Shown piece after piece: positions 7,828 to 32,446 of a stretch of 64,000 bases of DNA. Origin of the DNA: Alphaproteobacteria bacterium (GTDB lineage: Bacteria; Pseudomonadota; Alphaproteobacteria; Micropepsales; Micropepsaceae); contig WGNU01000003.1 in the NCBI GenBank assembly GCA_016124385.1, positions 27,731-91,730 on the forward strand, read 5' to 3'. Below the pieces are notes generated by a model, which saw nothing but the letters and a program-made list of their open reading frames with translations, made no database searches and was not told where the DNA came from. The translations under genes were made by a program, and so were the position numbers. The first letter of the stretch is position 1, and the number at the start of each line of letters is the position of its first letter.

Positions 7828-8195
7828 AAGTGTCAGATGGCCTGTAAGCCGGGTTCTGTCCCCGTTTCCGGGGGATGACCATTCCTCTGGGACGCTGATC
7901 GCTCAGCGCCTCGCGCGACCGACCCGAGCGACGAGCCGGAAACCGCCCATGTGCCGCTCCTATTTGGTCTTGCTCCCGGTGGGGCTTGCCGTGCCGTCTC
8001 TGTTGCCAGAGCCGCGGTGCGCTCTTACCGCACCGTTTCACCCTTGCCGGGACGAGCCCGGCGGTTTGTTTTCTGTGGCGCTATCCCTGAGGTCGCCCTC
8101 GCCGGGCGTTACCCGGCACCGTGCTTCCGTGGAGCCCGGACTTTCCTCCAGAGGCCGAAACCTCCAGCGGCCATCCGGCCATCTGACGGGTCTTA
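7828..8195 (-). ncRNA. rnpB: RNase P RNA, bacterial type A (ends approximate)
   Basis: The minus strand contains GGAGGAAAGTCCGGGCTCC (rc of 8131-8149), AAGGGTGAAACGGTGCGGTAAGAGCGCACC (rc of ~8016-8045) and GACAGAACCCGGCTTAC (rc of ~7844-7860). A P1 helix forms between GTCAGATGGCC (5' end, ~8177-8187) and GGCCATCTGAC (3' end, ~7832-7842). Confidence 0.93.
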
Positions 8196-10822: not shown

Positions 10823-14430
<3,608 letters not shown>

Positions 14431-14431
<1 letters not shown>

Positions 14432-15129
14432 TGGGCATGGCAAGTGTTCTCATCACCGGCGCCAACCGGGGCCTCGGCCTCGAATTCACGCGGCAATATC
14501 TGGACGACGGCTGGACGGTGCACGCGGCGGCGCGCGATCCGGGCGCGGCGTCGGCGCTGAAGACGCTGGTCGCGGCCTCCCGCACGCACGCCTATCTCCA
14601 CGCGCTCGACGTGGCGGATGAAGCGGCGCGCGCGGCGTTCGCCAACGCCATCAAGGGAGAGCCGCTCGACGTCGTCATCAACAACGCCGGCATCTATGGG
14701 CCGCAGCGCCAATCCTCCGTGGACGTCGATCCCGATGGCTTTGCGAGGACCCTCGCCGTCAACACCATCGCGCCGCTGCGCATCGCCCAGCTCTTGAAGC
14801 CGAACTTGAAAATGGGGCGCCTGCCGCGGCTCGTCACGATCACCTCGGCGATGGGATCGATCGCGCAAGGCGGCGGCGACTATTACGCCTACCGCGCCTC
14901 GAAGGCGGCAGTGAACATGGTGATGGTCTCGCTCGCCAAGGATTGGAAGCCCGACGGCATCACCGTCGCGGTTCTCCATCCCGGCTGGGTGCGCACCGAC
15001 ATGGGCGGCCAGAGCGCGCCCCTGAGCCCGGCCGATTCGGTGACGGGCCTGCGCCAGGTGATCGCCAGCCTCGCGATCGACAAGACCGGCCGCTTCCTCG
15101 ATCACCAGGGCCAAACGATTCCCTGGTGA
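14431..15129 (+). CDS. short-chain dehydrogenase/reductase (SDR, C-factor-like)
   Basis: TGANRGLG cofactor motif, NNAG, and the catalytic YxxxK (YRASKAA). The start could instead be the ATG at 14437. Confidence 0.88.
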
Positions 15130-15356: not shown

Positions 15357-15388
15357 AGGCGCTGCCGATTCTCGAGGGGATTCGGGTT

Positions 15389-15421
15389 GAGCCGGGCCAC
15401 CGCCCGGCTCGATTCATTTTT
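15389..15421 (+). terminator. rho-independent terminator
   Basis: GAGCCGGGC-cacc-GCCCGGCTC stem-loop followed by GATTCATTTTT on the + strand. Lies in the convergent gap between the small ORF and metH. Confidence 0.6.
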
Positions 15422-15444: not shown

Positions 15445-18110
<2,666 letters not shown>

Positions 18111-18114
<4 letters not shown>

Positions 18115-18803
18115 GACGCGGCCTCGCAGATCCAGCCCTTGACCATCAGGCCCTGATAGAAGCTTTCCGCTTTCGCGAACCCGGCTTCGGCTAGGAGCGC
18201 CATCTCGCGCGCCTCGGGAAGGATGCGCAGCACGCCGGCGTTCATCTCGATCGCGCGGGCGACGACCTCCTCGGGCGCGCCCATGAGGCCGCCATGCCGC
18301 CCATAGAGGCTGAGCGTCTTGGCGAATTCCGGCGCGTCCTGCGCGCCGCACGCATGGACCATCAGAAACGGCGCGCCCGGCTTTAGCCGCTGGCGAATGG
18401 CCTTGAGGCCTTGCAGCCGCGTCCCGTCATCGGGGAGGAACGGCAGGGTGAGGAAACACGTCGCGCCGTCGAACGGGCCCGCCGGCGCATCGGGAATGAA
18501 GCCGCGCGTGAGCGCGACGCGCGTTTTCTCGATCCCCTCGCGGGCGAGGATGTGATGGGCGAGCGCGAGCATCTGCTCCGACGGATCAATGCCGCTGAAG
18601 CGCCACTCTCCATGCCGCGCCAGCGCGGTGATCTCCGCGCCGCCGCCGGCGCCGAGCACAAGCAGATGACCGCGCGGCCCGATCCGCTCGAGGAGAAGCG
18701 CCGCCGCCATCGTGTGGATCGCGTCATAGCCCGGAATGAACCAGCGCGGCCCCTTCTCGTAGGTCGCGACGAACTGGGGATCCGCGTCGAAATCATAGGT
18801 CAT
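18111..18803 (-). CDS. class I SAM-dependent methyltransferase of unknown substrate
   Basis: 230 aa from ATG 18803 ([11 protein letters not shown]...). Motif I is [11 protein letters not shown]. Overlaps both MetH pieces by ATGA. The track extension to 18968 is rejected. Confidence 0.8.
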
Positions 18804-19864
18804 GACGCAAGCTCGAACGGCTCGAGGCCAGAGAGCCGGAGCGCCTTTTCGATCGTGGGCACGGCGCGCGGCGCCCGGCCCTCGACGGCCTTGGCGATCG
18901 CGGCGATGTGCTCGGGCGTCGTCCCGCAACACCCGCCCAGAATATTGACGAGGCCCGATTGCGCCCACTCGCTTAGCATCCGCGCGGTGTCGTCCGGCTG
19001 CTCGTCATACTGGCCGAATTCGTTCGGCAGCCCGGCGTTGGGATAGGCGGCGACGAGCGTGTCGGCGATCGCGGCGAGTTCGGCGATATGCGGGCGCATG
19101 AGATCGGCGCCGAGCGCGCAATTGAGCCCGACGGCGAAGGGCTTGGCATGCCGGATGGAATTCCAGAACGCCTCGACCGTCTGCCCACTGAGCGTGCGGC
19201 CCGACCGGTCGGTGATCGTGCCGGAAATCCAGATCGGCAAGGGCTCATAGCCCTGATCTTCCAGATCGAGGATCGCCTTGATCGCGGCCTTGGCGTTCAG
19301 CGTGTCGAAGATCGTCTCGATAAGGAAGAGATCGACGCCCCCCTCGTGCAGCGCGCGCGCCTGCTCCGAATAGGAGGCATAGACGCCATCCCACGTGACG
19401 GTGCGCTTGCCGGGATCGTTAACGTCCGGCGAGATCGAGAGCGCGCGGTTCATCGGCCCGATCGAGCCGGCAACGAACCGGGGCTTTGCCGGATTCTTTG
19501 CGGTCCAGCGATCCGCCGCCGCGCGCGCAAGTTTTGCACCCTCGCGGTTGATGTCGGCGGCGGCCTCTTCCAGCGCATAATCCGCCTGCGCGATCCGCGT
19601 CGCCGAGAAGGTGTTCGTCTCGGAAATGTCGGCGCCGGCCGCGAAATAGGCATCGTGCAGGCCGGTCACGATATCGGGGCGCGTCAGGCACAGAATGTCG
19701 TTGTTGCCCTTGAGGTCGCCCTTGTGGCCGGCGAACCGCGTGCCGCGATAATCCGCCTCCTGAAGACCCTTCCGCTGGATCATCACGCCCCAGGCGCCGT
19801 CGAGAATGAGGATGCGCTCGGCCGCCGCCTGCTTCAGCGCGGCGATGCGCTCGGTGCGGGTCAT
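18800..19864 (-). CDS. metH: homocysteine S-methyltransferase domain protein (stand-alone MetH N-terminal Hcy-binding module)
   Basis: 354 aa. [13 protein letters not shown]...[26 protein letters not shown]...GLNCALG...[11 protein letters not shown], carrying the zinc-ligand Cys pattern of the Hcy-binding barrel. Confidence 0.9.
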
Positions 19865-20712
19865 GCGCGCGCTCCCGTGATGCCGATCAGCCGGCAGATC
19901 GCGTAGGTGAGATCGGCCTGGTTGAGCGTATAGAAATGGAACTGGTCGAACCCCTCGCGGCGCAGGCGCTCCACCTGCTCGGCGGCGATGGCGGCCGCGA
20001 TCAGCTTGCGCGTTTCGAGATCCTCATCGAGCCCGTCGAAGCGCGCGGCGAGCGCGGGCGGGATGCTTGCGCCGCACTTGCCCGCCATCCGCGCGACGCC
20101 CTTGAAATTCGTCGTCGGCATGATGCCCGGCACCAGCGGGATTTTGAGGCCCGAGCGCGCCATCCGGTCGCGCAGCTTCAGAATCGCCTCGGTCACGAAG
20201 CAAAATTGCGAGATCGCGCGGCTGGCGCCGGCCGCGACCTTTGCTTTGAGCGCGTCGAGATCGGCGTCCGCAGTCGGCGAATCCGGGTGCTTCTCGGGAT
20301 AGGCCGAGACCGACACCTCGAAGGGCGCGATCGCGCGGATGCCGGCAATGAGCGCGGGCGTTGATTCGTATCCTTCCGGGTGCGGACGATAGGGCCCCTC
20401 CATGCCCGGCATGTCGCCGCGCAGGGCGACGATATGCTTCACCCCCGCCGCCCAGTAGTCGCGGATCACCTCGTCGATCTCGGCCCTCGAAGCCGCAACG
20501 CACGTGAGATGCGCGGCCGGCGGGATCGTCGTTTCCTCGTGGATCCGTTTGACCGTCGCGTGCGTGCGCTCGCGGGTCGATCCGCCCGCGCCATAGGTCA
20601 CCGACATGAAGGCGGGCTTGAGGGGCGCGAGCCGGCGGATCGCCGTCCACAGCGTCTCTTCGGCCGTGGGCGTCTTGGGCGGCGAGAATTCGAAGGAAAC
20701 GATGGCGCTCAT
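19861..20712 (-). CDS. metF: 5,10-methylenetetrahydrofolate reductase
   Basis: From ATG 20712: [14 protein letters not shown]...[15 protein letters not shown]...HLTCV...ALRGD...ISQFCF. Start and stop both overlap neighbours by ATGA. The track ORF to 21300 is an artefactual extension. Confidence 0.93.
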
Positions 20713-21692
20713 GATGGGGCTCCGGATTGGGCCTGCGGCTCGAGCCGCCAGAGCGAGACGGTGAGCCCGCCCGCCGCGACCGGGGGCAGTGCCGTCTCGG
20801 CCGAAACGGTCAGCCCCGCGCCGCGCGCCCACTCGGCGATCTCGCCGCGCGCGAAGCCCAGCCGGCGATGGGCGTGCTCGGCGCGCAGGAATTCGAGATC
20901 GTGCGGCGCGAAATCGGCGATCACGATCCGCCCGCCGGGCGCAAGCACGCGCGCCGCCTCGCGGACCGCGAGCGCGGGCGTATCGAGGTAATGCAGCACC
21001 TGGTGAAAGAGCGCGACGTCGAAGCGTTCCTCGCCGAGCGCAAGCCGCAGGAGATCGCCCTGCCGCACGGTGCAATGGGCGAGCCCCTTGTCGGCGAGCG
21101 CGTTCCGCGCGACCGCCAGCATCGCGTGGCTGAGATCGACCCCGACACCCCGCCCGATCGAGGGGCCGAACAACTCCAGCATCCGCCCCGTCCCGGTGCC
21201 CAGATCGAGCAGTGAGACGATCGGCCGGTCGGCCAGCATGGCAATGAGCGCGCGCTCGACCTCGGCCTCGGGCACGTGAAGCGCGCGCAGCTTGGCCCAA
21301 TTCTCGGCATTCGCCTGAAAATAGGCGCCCGCCGCCTCCGCCCGCGCGGCGCGCACGGCGGTCAGCCGGCGCCGGTCGGCATCCAGCACGGCGTCGCTTT
21401 CCGGCAACAGGGCGCGCAGCGAATCGGCAACCCGGGCGGCGTTCCCCCGGTCAGCCAGACGGAAAAACGCCCAGCTCCCTTCCGGGAAGCGCTGGACGAG
21501 GCCCGCATCGACGAGCAGCTTTAAGTGCCGGCTGACCCGGGGCTGGCTTTGCCCCAGAACGTGGGTGATTTCGGAGACCGTCAACTCGCCTTCGGCCAGC
21601 AGAGCCAGCAAACGCAGGCGCGTGGGCTCCGCCGCCGCCCGCAGGCGCAGGACCAGATCCTCGAAAGGCGGCGTCTCGATCGCAAGGCTCAT
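20709..21692 (-). CDS. sahR: ArsR-family wHTH fused to SAM-methyltransferase-like sensor domain (SahR-type regulator of methionine metabolism)
   Basis: N-terminal ArsR/SmtB HTH (EPTRLRLLALL..GELTVSEITHVLGQSQPRVSRHLKLL). C-terminal class I MTase fold (LLDLGTGTGRM...VALFHQVLHY). First gene of the metF/metH operon. Confidence 0.8.
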   Translation of the reverse strand: MSLAIETPPFEDLVLRLRAAAEPTRLRLLALLAEGELTVSEITHVLGQSQPRVSRHLKLLVDAGLVQRFPEGSWAFFRLADRGNAARVADSLRALLPESDAVLDADRRRLTAVRAARAEAAGAYFQANAENWAKLRALHVPEAEVERALIAMLADRPIVSLLDLGTGTGRMLELFGPSIGRGVGVDLSHAMLAVARNALADKGLAHCTVRQGDLLRLALGEERFDVALFHQVLHYLDTPALAVREAARVLAPGGRIVIADFAPHDLEFLRAEHAHRRLGFARGEIAEWARGAGLTVSAETALPPVAAGGLTVSLWRLEPQAQSGAPS

Positions 21693-21720: not shown

Positions 21721-21740
21721 ACATAAAGATATTTTTATGT
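21721..21740. promoter_or_regulatory. 20-bp near-perfect palindrome, candidate SahR operator
   Basis: ACATAAAGAT|ATTTTTATGT with 9/10 symmetric positions. It is AT-rich in a GC-rich genome and lies 29 nt upstream of the sahR start, in the divergent sahR/mlaA region. Confidence 0.4.
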
Positions 21741-21889
21741 CCTTATCGACTTCGCGACTTGAGGCGTCCGTGCCACGCTCGCGAACTCGTCAATTTGCAT
21801 CGAATTAACGGACTTGCCTTAGCAAGGGCGTTCGATGGTATGAGGGTTTTGGATAGCCCGGCCAGGCGCCGGTGGTGAGGGGTAGGCTG

Positions 21890-22639
21890 ATGGTGTGGAA
21901 GCAATGGCTGGCTGGGCTCGCGGCAGTGTGTCTGCTGGCGGGCGGCACCCCGGCCTTCGCCCAAAGCGAGGAACCCCGCGACGAGCTGGGCGACAACGAT
22001 CCGATCGAAGGCGTGAACCGCGTCATCTTCGAGGTGAACGACGTTCTCGATCGCTTCATCCTGCGCCCGATCGCCATCGTCTATCGCAATGTGGTCCCCG
22101 ACTTCGCGCAGGACCGCATCCGCAACACGCTGAACAATCTCGACAGCCCGGTAATCTTCGCCAACGACCTGATGCAGGGCGAGTTCGACCGCGCGGGCGC
22201 GACCATGTCGCGCTTCATGATCAATTCGACGGTGGGCGTCGCGGGCCTGTTCGACGTCGCCGACGAACTGGGCGTGCCCCGTCACACCGAGGATTTCGGC
22301 CAGACGCTGGCGGTCTGGGGGCTGGGCGAAGGCCCGTACCTCTATTTGCCGCTCCTCGGCCCCTCGAATCCGCGCGATCTGGTTGGCCGCATCGTCGATA
22401 TGGGCCTCGACCCGCTCTCCTATGTCGATTGGGAGGACGAGGACCTGGAATGGGTACCCTACACCCGCTACGGCCTCGACGTGGTTGATCTCCGCGCCCG
22501 CAACATCGAGGTGCTGGATAATCTGCGCAAGACCTCGGTCGATTACTACGCGGCGATCCGCAGCTCCTACCGTCAGCTGAGGAACGATGCGATTCGCAAC
22601 GGCGAGGTCGATATCGAAGACCTCCCGGCGATCGAGTAG
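21890..22639 (+). CDS. mlaA: MlaA/VacJ family lipoprotein
   Basis: DPIEGVNRVIFEVNDVLDRFILRPIA..YR...N..SPV.F.NDLLQG...TVGVAGLFDVA...EDFGQTLAVWG is the VacJ signature. The start may be the GTG at 21872. Confidence 0.88.
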   Translation: MVWKQWLAGLAAVCLLAGGTPAFAQSEEPRDELGDNDPIEGVNRVIFEVNDVLDRFILRPIAIVYRNVVPDFAQDRIRNTLNNLDSPVIFANDLMQGEFDRAGATMSRFMINSTVGVAGLFDVADELGVPRHTEDFGQTLAVWGLGEGPYLYLPLLGPSNPRDLVGRIVDMGLDPLSYVDWEDEDLEWVPYTRYGLDVVDLRARNIEVLDNLRKTSVDYYAAIRSSYRQLRNDAIRNGEVDIEDLPAIE

Positions 22640-22789
22640 CTCACCAAAAATTCATGAGGCAGCGTAAACGCTGCCCCAATCCTGCCCGATTGGCCGTCCA
22701 TCACAGCCCGGCTCGGCGGCCCGCGCTATACCGTGCGGCATCGTCGCTTGACGCGAGCGGAACACTCGCGCGAAAGGGGAGTTTCTACG

Positions 22790-23464
22790 ATGCGTAGGTC
22801 TTTGAAGAGGAACCAACCGATGCTGGCGCGCCTGGCCTTTGCCCCCGGAACGATGATGCTCGCACTCGTCTCGCTGGTTGCGCTCCTCTTCTCACCGGCC
22901 CTGGAGGCACATGCCGCCCCCACGCCGAAGGATTTCGTCCAGAACGCGGTCGATCGCGGCGTCTCGATCCTCTCTGACGGCAGCCTCTCGCAGGACGCGC
23001 GCCGCCAGGAGTTCCGCCAGTTCATCTTGAACCTCACCGATTCGCGCCGGATCGCGCTCTTCACGCTCGGCAAGTATCGCCGCCAGGCGAGCGATGCGGA
23101 CGTCTCCGCCTTCGTCGACGCCTTCACCGAATACGCGGTCGCGGTCTATGAGGCCCGGCTCGACGACTACAAGGGCGAGAAGCTGCAGGTGACCGACGTC
23201 GTCGAGCGTTCCGCGAGCGACGTGATCGTGACGACCATCGTCGAGGATTCGGGCTCCGAGCCCATCCGCGTCGCCTTCCGCCTCAATCCGAAGGGCGACA
23301 GCTACATCGTCATCGACGTTCAGGTGGTCGGCATCTGGCTGGCCCTCGACCAGCAATCGCAATTTTCCTCGTTCCTCAGCCAGAACGACGGCTCCGTGCC
23401 GGCGCTCACCGCGCACCTGAAGAAGCAGACGGCCGAGATCCAGGCCGGCCGCGCGGAGAACTAG
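22790..23464 (+). CDS. mlaC: MlaC/Ttg2D-like phospholipid-binding periplasmic protein
   Basis: Signal peptide, then the toluene-tolerance Ttg2 pattern (FILNLTDSRRIALFTLGKYRRQAS...F...Y...Y). AAAGGGGAG SD precedes ATG 22790. Neighbour of mlaA. Confidence 0.78.
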   Translation: MRRSLKRNQPMLARLAFAPGTMMLALVSLVALLFSPALEAHAAPTPKDFVQNAVDRGVSILSDGSLSQDARRQEFRQFILNLTDSRRIALFTLGKYRRQASDADVSAFVDAFTEYAVAVYEARLDDYKGEKLQVTDVVERSASDVIVTTIVEDSGSEPIRVAFRLNPKGDSYIVIDVQVVGIWLALDQQSQFSSFLSQNDGSVPALTAHLKKQTAEIQAGRAEN

Positions 23465-23526
23465 GAGAGCGACGAAAGTTTGAAGTCCTCCCCCGTTCGC
23501 GGGGGAGGATATTCCCAGAGCGACCG

Positions 23527-24225
23527 TTGCGGCACGTTCTTATCCTTGCCCTTCTGATCTTCGCCTCGCCCGCGGCCGCGCGGGACTGGCACGGCGTGAC
23601 GCTCGACCGCGCGAAGATCATCCGCCCCGGGCTGCTCGAGGAAGCGCTGGGCGCGCTCACGTTCCACGCGGCCGTGATCCCGCAGCAGGACGCGATCGCC
23701 ATCATCGACTACGACTTGCCGTCGGATGAGCCGCGCCTGTTTCTCCTCGACCTCAAGACGGGCAAGGTGGAGGCGTTCCTCGTCGCGCATGGCCAGGGCT
23801 CCGATCCCGATCACGACGGGATGCTCGACAGCCTCTCGGACGTTCCGGGCTCGAACGCCTCGACGGCGGGCGCGTTCCTCACCGGCGAGACCTATTGCGG
23901 CGAGAACGGGCGGACGCTGCGGCTCTATGGGCTCGAGGAGCGCAACGCCAACGCCGCCACGCGCGCGATCGTCCTCCACTCGACCTATCTGAAAGGCCGC
24001 CTGCCCTATATGAGCCACGCCTTCATCGACGCGCACGGCCGGCCCGGCCGCTCCTGGGGCTGCTTCGTCCTGCCGCCCGAGGATCTGCGCCACGTGATCG
24101 AGCGGATCGGCGCCGGCCACCTCCTCTATGCGAACACGAAGCGCTTCCATAGCGGCAGCGCGGCGCCGGTGACGCCCCTGCCGGCCCTCGCGCCCCTTGC
24201 CCCCGGCACCTGCCCCTGGCCGTGA
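23527..24225 (+). CDS. L,D-transpeptidase catalytic-domain (YkuD_2-like) secreted protein
   Basis: Signal peptide. AIVLHSTYL...GRSWGCFVL resembles the His/Cys active-site motif of YkuD-fold enzymes. TTG start. Confidence 0.7.
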   Translation: MRHVLILALLIFASPAAARDWHGVTLDRAKIIRPGLLEEALGALTFHAAVIPQQDAIAIIDYDLPSDEPRLFLLDLKTGKVEAFLVAHGQGSDPDHDGMLDSLSDVPGSNASTAGAFLTGETYCGENGRTLRLYGLEERNANAATRAIVLHSTYLKGRLPYMSHAFIDAHGRPGRSWGCFVLPPEDLRHVIERIGAGHLLYANTKRFHSGSAAPVTPLPALAPLAPGTCPWP

Positions 24226-24283
24226 CTATTACGCCCGCCACTCCAATCGTTGCCAGGAGCGATTCAGCAGGACAGCATCGATC

Positions 24284-24928
24284 ATGGAAATCGCTCGATT
24301 CGTGCCCGACGAGATATCGCAAAAATTCGACGTTCGCGAGTGGCGAAACGGACTTGCTGTACTCGCTGGCGCGCATTCCAAGGAATTGAGCGACGTATAT
24401 TCAGTCTTAAAAAATTTCAGATTGTATAAATCATACATTCTCAAACCCGGAGGTAGCAAGTCACCCATCTCATCTTGGCTAGATAGTCAACTTTACAAAC
24501 TTGGTTGGAAAGAGAAAAAATTCGACACCAGCATCCTGGTAGACGGCATGGAATACAAGACGCCGACACACGCAGTCGATTGCTTTAAGAACCGTGTCGC
24601 TCTTGAAGTCGAATGGAACAACAAAGATCCATTCTTTGACAGAGATCTAAATAACTTTCGCCTTCTTTTCGAACTTCGAGCAATTGATGTTGGTATTATC
24701 ATAACGCGATGTGACGAGTTGCAGACAATTATCAAATCCCTCGGACGTGGCAGCAGCTATGGAGCTTCCACGACACATTTGTCCAAGCTCTTGCCACGAA
24801 TTGATGGTGGTGGCGGTGGCGGCTGCCCGATTGTTGTGTTCGGCATTCGTTCTTCGTGTTATGTGGATGAAAATCACCCAGAAACGTTTGGGACAGCTGG
24901 CCTGGAAGGAAGCACTGATGACGAGTAA
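24284..24928 (+). CDS. type II restriction endonuclease, BglII/BstYI/BamHI fold
   Basis: 214 aa from ATG 24284. The core VDCFKNRVALEVEWNNKDPFFDRDLNNF...IDVGIIITR aligns by eye with BglII IDFGKRDTLVEVQFSNYPFLLNN...VAIIIT. The D-x8-E-x-E catalytic spacing matches BglII D84/E93/Q95. Confidence 0.75.
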   Translation: MEIARFVPDEISQKFDVREWRNGLAVLAGAHSKELSDVYSVLKNFRLYKSYILKPGGSKSPISSWLDSQLYKLGWKEKKFDTSILVDGMEYKTPTHAVDCFKNRVALEVEWNNKDPFFDRDLNNFRLLFELRAIDVGIIITRCDELQTIIKSLGRGSSYGASTTHLSKLLPRIDGGGGGGCPIVVFGIRSSCYVDENHPETFGTAGLEGSTDDE

Positions 24929-25547
24929 TGACATGTTCGACAGTGTCAGAGGGACCAGATACCAGACAGTTCTCGCCGACCCGCCATGGCAGTTTCAAAA
25001 CCGTACTGGCAAGATGGCGCCAGAACATCGCAGGCTAAATCGCTATGGCACTATGGCTCTGGATCAAATTGCAGCGCTGCCGGTCTCAGACTTAGCTGCA
25101 CCGCGCTCACATCTTTATCTCTGGGTCCCGAACGCCCTCTTGCCAGAGGGAATTATAGTAATGAAATCTTGGGGTTTTACTTACAAAAGCAATATTGTGT
25201 GGCACAAAATTAGAAAAGATGGCGGATCTGACGGAAGGGGAGTTGGATTTTATTTTAGAAACGTCACAGAGCTTTGTCTTTTTGGGATTCGCGGTTCGAA
25301 TAACAGGACATTGAGCCCTGCACGTCGACAAGTGAACATGCTAGAGACTCGCAAGCGTGAGCACAGCCGTAAGCCAGACGAACTATATGAAATTATAGAA
25401 GCCTGTAGCCCCGGACCCTACCTCGAGCTATTCGCGCGCGGCACTAGGACCGGTTGGCATTCATGGGGTGAGCAGGCGAACGACACCTATGCACCGACCT
25501 GGAAGACCTACGCCAATCACTCGAGATCGCTCCAAGCTGCTGAGTAG
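24918..25547 (+). CDS. MT-A70 family N6-adenine DNA methyltransferase
   Basis: TVLADPPWQF (DPPW motif IV), YLWVPN, GFTYKSNIVWHK, EHSRKPDELYEIIE. ATG 24918 overlaps the endonuclease 3' end by 11 nt; an ATG at 24933 is an alternative start. Confidence 0.85.
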   Translation: MTSNDMFDSVRGTRYQTVLADPPWQFQNRTGKMAPEHRRLNRYGTMALDQIAALPVSDLAAPRSHLYLWVPNALLPEGIIVMKSWGFTYKSNIVWHKIRKDGGSDGRGVGFYFRNVTELCLFGIRGSNNRTLSPARRQVNMLETRKREHSRKPDELYEIIEACSPGPYLELFARGTRTGWHSWGEQANDTYAPTWKTYANHSRSLQAAE

Positions 25548-31257: not shown

Positions 31258-32386
31258 GTGGTGGGCCCGGCAGGAACAAACTGGGCACTGGCTCATCTGC
31301 ATTCGCTGGCACCCACACCGCCGGCCAGCGCGGGACAGAGCCTAGCCTAAGCGTTTCGCCAACGTAGAATGGTCGTTCGCTTGGGCCGAATTCTGCTGCA
31401 TTCATGTTCTTTCCGGATAGCGACGCATGAACGAGATCGAACAAGAGTGCATCATCTTGAACTCGGCGTGGAAAATGATCGACGGCATGGTCAACTGGGC
31501 CATGTTCGTGAAACACGGTCACGTCGAACCGACCGATATGATGTTCCAAACTAGCCATTGCAGCGAACTGTTCATCATCCGGCTCGGTGACTTCTTGTCT
31601 CAACTCCGCGCATTCAATGGGCGGCCGGTTCCACTCGGCCTGCAAGCGGCTCCATCGAATGCCCGCCCGTCCGATCTGACCTTTCTCTATTATCTGCGAC
31701 AGGTGTGCGCGAAGCCTCACCTCGCGCCGGAAGCATCGAACCTGAGTACTCACACCGAGGCATTCGCTACCTGGCTCGAAGGAGACTTCGTCACCCAAGG
31801 CGTCAACTTGTCCGCGATCAATGTCGTCGCCGACCTACGTGTCACGCGCTATCGATACCTCAAGATTTGTGGTGACATCGCAAAACACAATCTGGCACGG
31901 CTTGAAACGAACGTCCGTTACATACAAAACCTGCTCCAAGCCAGCGGCCATCCCGTCGGCGAGCAAGAAGCATACCTGACGGTTGCAGATTTCTACGAAT
32001 GGTTCCAAAGGAAAATCTTCATCTATCACTCAAGCCAAATTGCTGAATTCCTGAACAACATTCGATGGGCGATCTTCGAGTTCCTGCAGCCTGAGTTTGA
32101 CCGGTCGTACCATCAAAAAGAAGGCTACTCACTGAGTACGCCTTTGTATGGCTATCACTATCCGGATGGCTGCAACGAGCCGCTGGCATGCGCGATGTAT
32201 TGGGATCTGATGAACCGGGTGCGCGGACGGCCGTGGCTGCACCGTTTCATTGTGTCGGACTCGTTTAAGGCGCTTTACTAGTTACAAAGCGGACTCCAGG
32301 ACGATGTCCAAGTCGCGGAGGCCGCCTGTGTTTGCCGCGTCACTGAGATTTGCGATGTACGTTCCAGTGTGGTGGGCCCGGCAGGA
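31258..32386. mobile_element. integrase-less tRNA-associated genomic islet bounded by 18-bp direct repeats
   Basis: GTGGTGGGCCCGGCAGGA occurs at 31258-31275 and again at 32369-32386, the latter covering the tRNA 3' end (32370-32386) plus one flanking base. The interior is AT-richer than the flanks and holds one ORF. Confidence 0.7.
31427..32281 (+). CDS. orphan hypothetical protein (284 aa), islet cargo
   Basis: Long uninterrupted ORF with normal amino-acid composition and atypical (lower GC) codon usage. I recognise no motif. Confidence 0.6.
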   Translation: MNEIEQECIILNSAWKMIDGMVNWAMFVKHGHVEPTDMMFQTSHCSELFIIRLGDFLSQLRAFNGRPVPLGLQAAPSNARPSDLTFLYYLRQVCAKPHLAPEASNLSTHTEAFATWLEGDFVTQGVNLSAINVVADLRVTRYRYLKICGDIAKHNLARLETNVRYIQNLLQASGHPVGEQEAYLTVADFYEWFQRKIFIYHSSQIAEFLNNIRWAIFEFLQPEFDRSYHQKEGYSLSTPLYGYHYPDGCNEPLACAMYWDLMNRVRGRPWLHRFIVSDSFKALY

Positions 32387-32446
32387 CTCGAACCTGCGAC
32401 CAGACCGTTATGAGCGGCCCGCTCTAACCAGCTGAGCTACAGGCCC
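32370..32446 (-). tRNA. tRNA with CAU anticodon (elongator tRNA-Met, or tRNA-Ile2 if lysidine-modified)
   Basis: 77 nt: GGGCCTG TA GCTC AGCTGGTTA GAGC G GGCCG CTCATAA CGGTC TGGTC GCAGG TTCGAGT CCTGC CGGGCCC A CCA. It forms a full cloverleaf with encoded CCA. There is no C1:A72 mismatch, so it is not an initiator. Confidence 0.95.

Follow-up and report, generated by a model that had tools for sequence, protein, structure and literature searches.

A 64,000-nucleotide stretch of contig WGNU01000003.1, from an alphaproteobacterium of the family Micropepsaceae, carries a five-gene operon in which the gene for a 230-aa S-adenosylmethionine (SAM)-dependent methyltransferase, hereafter called MT, lies between the two genes of a split methionine synthase, MetH. 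The whole stretch is called the window, and coordinates are window positions unless a locus is named. The reading I favour, with a probability of about 0.55, is that MT is a catalytically competent, small-molecule methyltransferase of the SahR regulon, which acts as an auxiliary enzyme and not as a subunit, reactivator or adaptor of MetH. The evidence is that MetH is complete without MT, that the SAM site of MT is intact, that an operator-like palindrome precedes the operon, and that close relatives of MT occur in sahR operons devoid of metH and in zinc-starvation clusters, the metH-linked and zinc-linked members being interleaved on the family tree.

Results

MT is an additional gene in an operon encoding every module of MetH

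The MT gene occupies positions 18111-18803 of the minus strand, and translation of this interval returns the 230-aa protein of the initial annotation, whose coordinates and sequence were correct. The gene order, on the minus strand, is sahR-metF-metH(N)-MT-metH(C). sahR (20709-21692) encodes a 327-aa protein with an ArsR-type helix-turn-helix (HTH) domain and a SAM-methyltransferase-like effector domain (Pfam HTH_5 and Methyltransf_11/25; NCBIfam HTH_metalloreg), and metF (19861-20712) encodes a methylenetetrahydrofolate reductase (PF02219, E 4.7e-83; TIGR00676, 306.9 bits with the cut-off at 293.7). The N-terminal metH gene, metH(N) (18800-19864), specifies a 354-aa protein that corresponds to the homocysteine-binding (zinc) domain, Hcy (PF02574, E 2.7e-97), and displays the conserved cysteine motifs GLNCALG and GGCCGTTP. 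The 889-aa product of the C-terminal gene, metH(C) (15445-18114), contains the Pterin_bind, B12-binding_2 (B12 cap), B12-binding and Met_synt_B12 domains, the last being the AdoMet activation domain.

Each of the four junctions among these five genes is a 4-base ATGA stop/start overlap. The start of metF overlaps the stop of sahR and the start of metH(N) that of metF; the metH(N)/MT junction reads ...GTCATGAcg, the TGA stop of the 354-aa protein being shared with the ATG of MT at 18800-18803; and at the MT/metH(C) junction (...GCGTCATGAGT), positions 18111-18114, the start codon of the 889-aa protein shares bases with the stop of MT. The overlap of MT with both MetH fragments, claimed in the initial annotation, is thus confirmed at both junctions. 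The conclusion drawn there that MT is "expressed stoichiometrically" with them goes too far, since ATGA overlaps suggest translational coupling and not equal amounts. No riboswitch was found within the operon, and a simple promoter scan turned up no internal promoter.

On the MetH model PRK09490 (1234 positions), the 354-aa protein covers positions 6-354 and the 889-aa protein positions 357-1233, the latter with 1555 bits. Together the two flanking proteins leave no MetH module missing: MetH is split exactly at the Hcy/Fol boundary with every module present, and MT is an additional gene, which matched no MetH model in Pfam and NCBIfam profile searches. As the initial annotation had pointed out, the C-terminal piece keeps its own AdoMet activation domain (Met_synt_B12, E 2.4e-126), and MT is no obvious replacement for it.

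MT has an intact SAM site and lies outside the curated methyltransferase families

The MT gene is real, since it has homologues at 83%, 72% and 57% identity, an AlphaFold2 model with a mean predicted local distance difference test (pLDDT) score of 95.5, and scores above the cut-offs of three generic Pfam models (Methyltransf_12, 42.3 against 30; Methyltransf_25, 40.8 against 27; Methyltransf_11, 32.9 against 21.2). It has the attributes of a class I (Rossmann-fold) SAM methyltransferase: the glycine-rich motif I, the ribose-binding acidic residue that closes strand 2, the profile score and the seven-stranded fold. In family alignments of 28 and 24 sequences, the SAM-site motifs V-L-G51-A-G-G-G55, D73 and D105-A-P show little or no variation. 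The same holds outside the SAM site for Y15, G18-P19, D125-D126-G127, Y167, R199, F215 and G223-W224, a conservation that suggests an active enzyme with a defined pocket for a small substrate.

The Foldseek search proposed in the initial annotation was run with the MT model. The best matches in the Protein Data Bank (PDB) are CysG/BelI, MM_2633 and CmoA/YecO, with template modelling (TM) scores of about 0.80-0.90 over the whole length, and nearly all of the 50 best listed PDB matches are SAM methyltransferases. MM_2633 itself has no assigned function. The characterised members of this CmoA/CysG/MM_2633 fold type act on small carboxylate metabolites, and the substrate of MT is probably a small molecule; homology does not name one.

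No curated NCBIfam family came near its cut-off, the best being CpaM, DVU_1556 and CmoA, so that MT stands, as initially claimed, outside every characterised methyltransferase family. CpaM, a corrinoid-protein-associated methyltransferase (NF043040), was rejected at 28.3 bits of the 180 required, and the match is a generic one, since the SahR effector domain outscores MT on the same model (50.4 bits). Membership of CmoA, the carboxy-SAM synthase family (TIGR00740), was rejected at 18.9 bits (E 9.6e-4), ten-fold below the cut-off of 193.3.

CysG and BelI (PDB 9FCU, 9FCE; PMC11408123), which O-methylate the C1 carboxyl group of 3-alkylmalates on the way to cystargolide and belactosin, are the best PDB match of MT both by sequence (E 3e-6) and by fold (TM 0.83-0.90), and all share an N-terminal lid helix with an ...IP-x-(Y/F)D motif. 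Identity is only 22-24%, however, and the context of MT is not secondary metabolism. In CysG, His122-His123-Asp191 binds the catalytic divalent metal, calcium (PMC11408123); the HH of CysG (...SIHHLEHQD) aligns with P121-F122 of MT, the consensus of the MT family being H-F. A CysG-type mechanism was rejected for MT, in which the catalytic His-His-Asp metal motif is absent.

A putative SahR operator is shared with ahcY

A 20-bp palindrome, ACATAAAAATATCTTTATGT, located at 21721-21740 (minus strand), ~30 nt ahead of the point where sahR translation starts, is a candidate SahR operator. Of the 14 sequences with a sahR gene that were examined, the window included, 13 have the same or a near-identical palindrome ahead of sahR; in Peiella (locus L041) it is kept only in part. 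The genome of the window, an assembly that is 74% complete, was scanned with the 16-bp core of the palindrome, one mismatch being allowed. Two sites only were found, the one upstream of sahR and another ~50 nt upstream of ahcY, the S-adenosylhomocysteine (SAH) hydrolase gene (G000:C1:549390-549405, which is L196:1501-1516), a result that a SahR operator would be expected to give and that is consistent with a minimal SahR regulon of two operons in an assembly of that completeness. Since the operator-like palindrome is conserved in related operons and shared with ahcY, MT appears to belong to the SahR regulon. It would be transcribed from a SahR-controlled promoter, translationally coupled to both neighbours, and made together with AhcY when SAH accumulates.

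The architecture of sahR and the sahR-metF-metH-metH2 content of the operon are those of the textbook unit of the SahR regulon of Alpha- and Deltaproteobacteria, whose core comprises ahcY, metF, metH and metH2 (PMC4239095); unlike the window, that paper names no inserted methyltransferase.

Insertion of MT between metH genes is recurrent and rare

The neighbourhoods of relatives were established by tblastn with defined query proteins and by clustering of six-frame open reading frames (ORFs). A family member lies between the metH genes within the same genus (72% identity to MT), in the P0008 lineage (55%), in Phreatobacter and allied Hyphomicrobiales (49-52%), in Brevundimonas (46-48%), and in a Hyphomonadaceae metagenome-assembled genome (MAG) in which GGACT, PNPOx-like and KptA genes stand between MT and MetH(C). 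Overlaps or very short gaps are kept on both sides of MT in distant lineages. The linkage to metH from which the initial annotation argued is therefore conserved in a subset of other genomes, contrary to the lack of linkage that would have counted against that annotation. When species-representative genomes were scanned, 8 of the 80 best loci proved to be metH-inserted and 1 to be a sahR-MT operon; the best 80 metagenome loci include 11 metH-inserted ones, 1 sahR-metF-MT operon and 14 loci without a recognisable neighbour.

Frequency was assessed in 401 genomes sampled evenly from the class. The Hcy domain of MetH was found in 122 of them, and in about two thirds of these 122 the open frame is too short for a fused MetH, i.e. 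MetH is split. The MT family is present in 14 of the 401 genomes and adjoins metH only in the genome of the window (G000). The MT family is absent altogether from G093 and G389, the genomes with the closest MetH(N) relatives in the sample (74-75% identity). The linkage of MT to split metH recurs in several lineages but is rare, being seen in 1 of 401 class genomes, and most split metH genes lack MT.

The gap between split metH genes also collects foreign genes. In the P0008 lineage (L007:7085-7997; also L003:585-1497), a PIN toxin and an upstream partner ORF lie between MetH(N) and MT, and in the Hyphomonadaceae MAG the three genes at the junction (L042:4388-5956) include KptA, an RNA 2'-phosphotransferase.

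MT occurs behind sahR in operons without metH

Peiella carries a sahR-MT operon and has its MetH(N) on another contig, and locus L128 is a sahR-metF-MT operon with no metH in it. Two carriers of the zinc-type clusters described below, G427 (L036) and G429 (L035), gave no MetH(N) or MetH(C) match, the completeness of these genomes being not known. Several short (about 350-390 aa) MetE-like Meth_synt_2 genes were seen in G427 and G429, and no Meth_synt_2 match in the MetH-bearing genomes G422, G426 and G428. A search of 1.84 billion representative proteins for fusions of MT to MetH found none long enough among the 150 best of 10,820 matches (150-363 aa). The partnership of MT with both MetH pieces that the initial annotation implied is hard to reconcile with these metH-free operons, with clade mates in Zur/CobW/DUF1826 clusters, with the many split metH genes that lack an insert, and with the lack of fusions among those 150 representatives. 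The roles of SAM/SAH-sensing partner and of an enzyme for an alternative methyl acceptor linked to homocysteine, also put forward there, are speculative.

SahR-linked and zinc-linked members are interleaved on the family tree

A tree of 102 family members consists of two clades, each supported at 99% in the Shimodaira-Hasegawa-like approximate likelihood ratio test (SH-aLRT). The clade of the window holds all metH/SahR-linked members and, in addition, recurrent zinc-starvation clusters. Roseitalea (L110) has zur-znuBC next to znuA-cobW-x-MT. In Euryhalocaulis (L036), zur stands next to cobW-DUF1826-MT, and the palindrome TTATGTTATATCATAACATAA between zur and cobW matches the published Caulobacter crescentus Zur box GATGTTATATCATAACAAT. 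Erythrobacteraceae have cobW-DUF1826-MT with ATGA/GTGA overlaps, a metagenome contig (L188) has zur-MT, and further zinc contexts of the clade are MerC, CobW, ABC-2 and TonB-receptor clusters. The marks of a Zur regulon (a Zur box, with zur, znuA and COG0523 genes close by) are thus found with relatives and not with the MT of the window.

None of the 79 rows of the sister clade is metH-linked. Directly adjacent to MT in 50 of the 79 is a gene for an Rrf2-family regulator, mostly upstream and co-directional, with 32-51 nt between its end and the aligned part of MT. This regulator (e.g. L062:4505-4969, L040:4430-4951) has a single conserved cysteine, in APGCLVEQ, and scores below every NCBIfam equivalog cut-off. 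One sister-clade member, in Novosphingobium (L015), lies in a zinc-type cluster in which MerC neighbours cobW-DUF1826-MT-cobW-fur. In most of the settings found, MT is tethered to a stress regulator.

Within the clade of the window, metH/SahR-linked and CobW/DUF1826-linked members interleave, and given the well-supported branches the metH label must have changed at least three times. The approximately unbiased (AU) test, performed on a tree of the window's clade and eight outgroup rows, with rows grouped by context and not by tree position, rejected a single origin for the metH/SahR-linked members (13 rows, difference in log likelihood 102.5, p about 1e-67). At face value, one orthologous group would have exchanged a SahR operon for a Zur cluster, or the reverse, on several occasions.

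DUF1826 is not an obligate partner of MT

The Pfam domain DUF1826 is Zur-regulated in Francisella (PMC5786701) and appears in the cluster figures of COG0523 proteins (PMC2770081). When loci were sampled starting from DUF1826, both of the independently sampled loci carried an MT of the family. In L036:4273-4944, L038:4435-5004, L035:4375-4998 and L015:5366-6004, DUF1826 is translationally coupled to the CobW GTPase upstream and to MT downstream. With few exceptions, the 50 top-ranked Foldseek matches of its model (pLDDT 87) are Fe(II)/2-oxoglutarate (2OG)-type oxygenases, and H103-x-D105, H161 and R173 are invariant; DUF1826 is accordingly predicted to be an Fe(II)/2OG oxygenase.

DUF1826 was not found in the six metH/SahR-type genomes searched, the 74%-complete genome of the window included, and was found in 4 of the 5 zinc-type genomes searched as a positive control. 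Its absence from the former rules out an obligate MT-DUF1826 pairing, and the two results together indicate that MT has no obligate partner in either setting.

Other features of the window

A G+C-rich hairpin at 15384-15415, in the gap where the metH(C) and SDR genes converge, is a possible two-way terminator, found by pattern scan only. On that side, positions 10823-15129 (plus strand) contain an apparent fused hydantoinase/oxoprolinase ORF (1202 aa) and the SDR gene; on the other, 21872-24225 (plus strand) encodes MlaA, MlaC and a YkuD_2 L,D-transpeptidase. These neighbours bear no relation to methionine or zinc, and there are no zinc genes near MT in the window. In the P0008 lineage the operon is flanked by the same MlaA/MlaC and SDR/hydantoinase genes. 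Farther out, at 24281-25547 (plus strand), a BglII-family restriction endonuclease gene (PF09195, E 6.5e-43) is followed by one for a DNA methyltransferase of the MT-A70 family (PF05063) that shows a DPPW motif; the two are probably an acquired restriction-modification pair, since their codon usage looks AT-richer than the surroundings. The window also contains a class A RNase P RNA (7829-8186, minus strand, 315.8 bits) and a tRNA gene (32373-32446, minus strand).

Discussion

An auxiliary enzyme under stress control

Taken as a small-molecule methyltransferase of the SahR regulon, MT is probably a stress-induced helper enzyme. Evolution would have placed it repeatedly behind a regulator that reports stress: SahR here, Zur together with CobW and DUF1826 in close relatives, and Rrf2 in the sister clade. 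My guess at its substrate, made with low confidence, is a metabolite of the amino acid or carboxylic acid type that becomes relevant when zinc-dependent homocysteine methylation fails, because this reaction, catalysed by MetH(N) or MetE, is the sole visible point at which SAH accumulation and zinc shortage meet.

A precedent for an unassigned SAM methyltransferase inside, and co-regulated with, a methionine/SAM-recycling operon is YrrT of Bacillus subtilis, a putative SAM methyltransferase encoded in the S-box-controlled yrrT-mtnN-mccAB operon; its regulator, operon and lineage differ from those of MT. On the zinc side, the contexts of MT relatives resemble the Zur-regulated clusters of COG0523 (CobW/ZigA/ZrpX) and DUF1826; the papers on these clusters (PMC2770081, PMC4176598, PMC5786701) do not describe a methyltransferase as a cluster member, and the window, unlike such clusters, has no zinc genes close to MT. 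In Caulobacter, metE is up in a zur mutant (PMC4176598). Mycobacterium smegmatis MSMEG_6055 is a Zur-regulated class I methyltransferase (PMC7174638).

Alternative explanations

MT might instead be a passenger, neutral or nearly so, that uses the promoter of a permissive and well-expressed gap between metH genes and has no tie to the methyl cycle. The PIN toxin and its partner ORF at the same junction in the P0008 lineage, the GGACT, PNPOx-like and KptA genes between MT and MetH(C) in the Hyphomonadaceae MAG, the many unrelated contexts of the family, with 14 of the 80 best metagenome loci devoid of a recognisable neighbour, and the rarity of the insertion among split metH genes would all fit. 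I nevertheless consider this unlikely: one and the same MT clade turns up in SahR operons on several distinct branches, MT stays beside sahR where metH, or metF together with metH, is missing, its borders on either side remain overlaps or very short gaps even in distant lineages, and MT recurs, in contrast to the other junction passengers, which are lineage-specific. A second possibility, and a distinctly improbable one, is that MT is an accessory of MetH which aids assembly of the Hcy and Fol-Cob-Act modules, cofactor loading or reductive reactivation. The position of MT exactly between the halves, coupled by ATGA to both and conserved in Caulobacterales, Hyphomicrobiales and the lineage of the window, is what such an accessory would show, as is its intact SAM-binding site. 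However, MetH has its own intact AdoMet activation domain, most split MetH genes, the nearest MetH(N) relatives (G093 and G389) among them, do without any family member, sahR-MT and sahR-metF-MT operons exist without metH, clade mates live in genomes without detectable MetH, no fusions were found among the 150 best representatives, and the metH junction also collects plainly unrelated passengers.

Two further explanations concern the activity of the protein. In one, MT would be a non-catalytic binder of SAM or SAH, like the effector domain of SahR, that reports or sequesters SAH; its place behind a regulator (SahR, Zur or Rrf2) suits this role, and SahR shows that the fold can be an SAH sensor (PMC4239095). 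It is very unlikely, given that MT has no DNA-binding or signalling domain, that Y15, D125-D126, Y167, R199 and W224 look like a substrate pocket, and that the zinc clusters couple MT translationally to a predicted Fe/2OG oxygenase and so hint at a pathway of two enzymes. The other, which I hold to be most improbable of all, makes MT a CmoA-type carboxy-SAM synthase or another tRNA-modification enzyme. MT does resemble CmoA/YecO (PDB 4GEK, 1IM8) over its whole length (TM 0.82-0.85; 0.85 to Escherichia coli CmoA), shares a similar N-terminal ...VPGY... segment and gives a weak full-length match to TIGR00740 (residues 23-218), and many homologues bear the CmoA-type name "tRNA (cmo5U34)-methyltransferase" in JGI. 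By contrast, the TIGR00740 score is far below the family cut-off, no second methyltransferase such as cmoB adjoins MT in the loci examined, and the contexts are the methionine cycle and zinc, not tRNA.

Several points weigh against an auxiliary SahR-regulon enzyme as well. SahR control is inferred from a motif. The tight ATGA coupling to both MetH pieces in several distant lineages also fits a stoichiometric partner. The AU test was run with the contexts already known, and some of its rows are long-branched. The partner of the enzyme differs between contexts, which may not share one function, and the link between zinc and homocysteine is argued from shared context only. No paper on the MT family was found among those that could be searched.

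Implications

A rather unlikely idea is that the MT family links zinc supply to the methyl cycle: once the zinc-dependent step, catalysed by the Hcy domain of MetH or by MetE, fails, MT would act on a metabolite of the amino-acid type, such as homocysteine or SAH. If true, this would explain why MT has been wired repeatedly either to SahR or to Zur, the COG0523 zinc chaperone and DUF1826. In its extreme form, the link would be a zinc-independent bypass or rescue of homocysteine methylation. Were homocysteine simply methylated at the expense of SAM, the reaction would be futile on stoichiometric grounds.

Split MetH is well known, as are metF-metH operons controlled by SahR. The papers that could be searched do not describe an additional, conserved enzyme within SahR/metH operons, nor its alternation with membership of Zur/COG0523/DUF1826 clusters. 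Even if MT were a passenger, the split-metH gap is still shown to collect foreign genes. The membership that MT shares with Zur, COG0523 and DUF1826 offers a handle on the function of DUF1826, and on responses of zinc-starved cells beyond zinc uptake and paralogue swapping. Should MT have a role in the methyl cycle, the textbook loop from SAH to methionine would, in many Alphaproteobacteria, lack a step or a safeguard.

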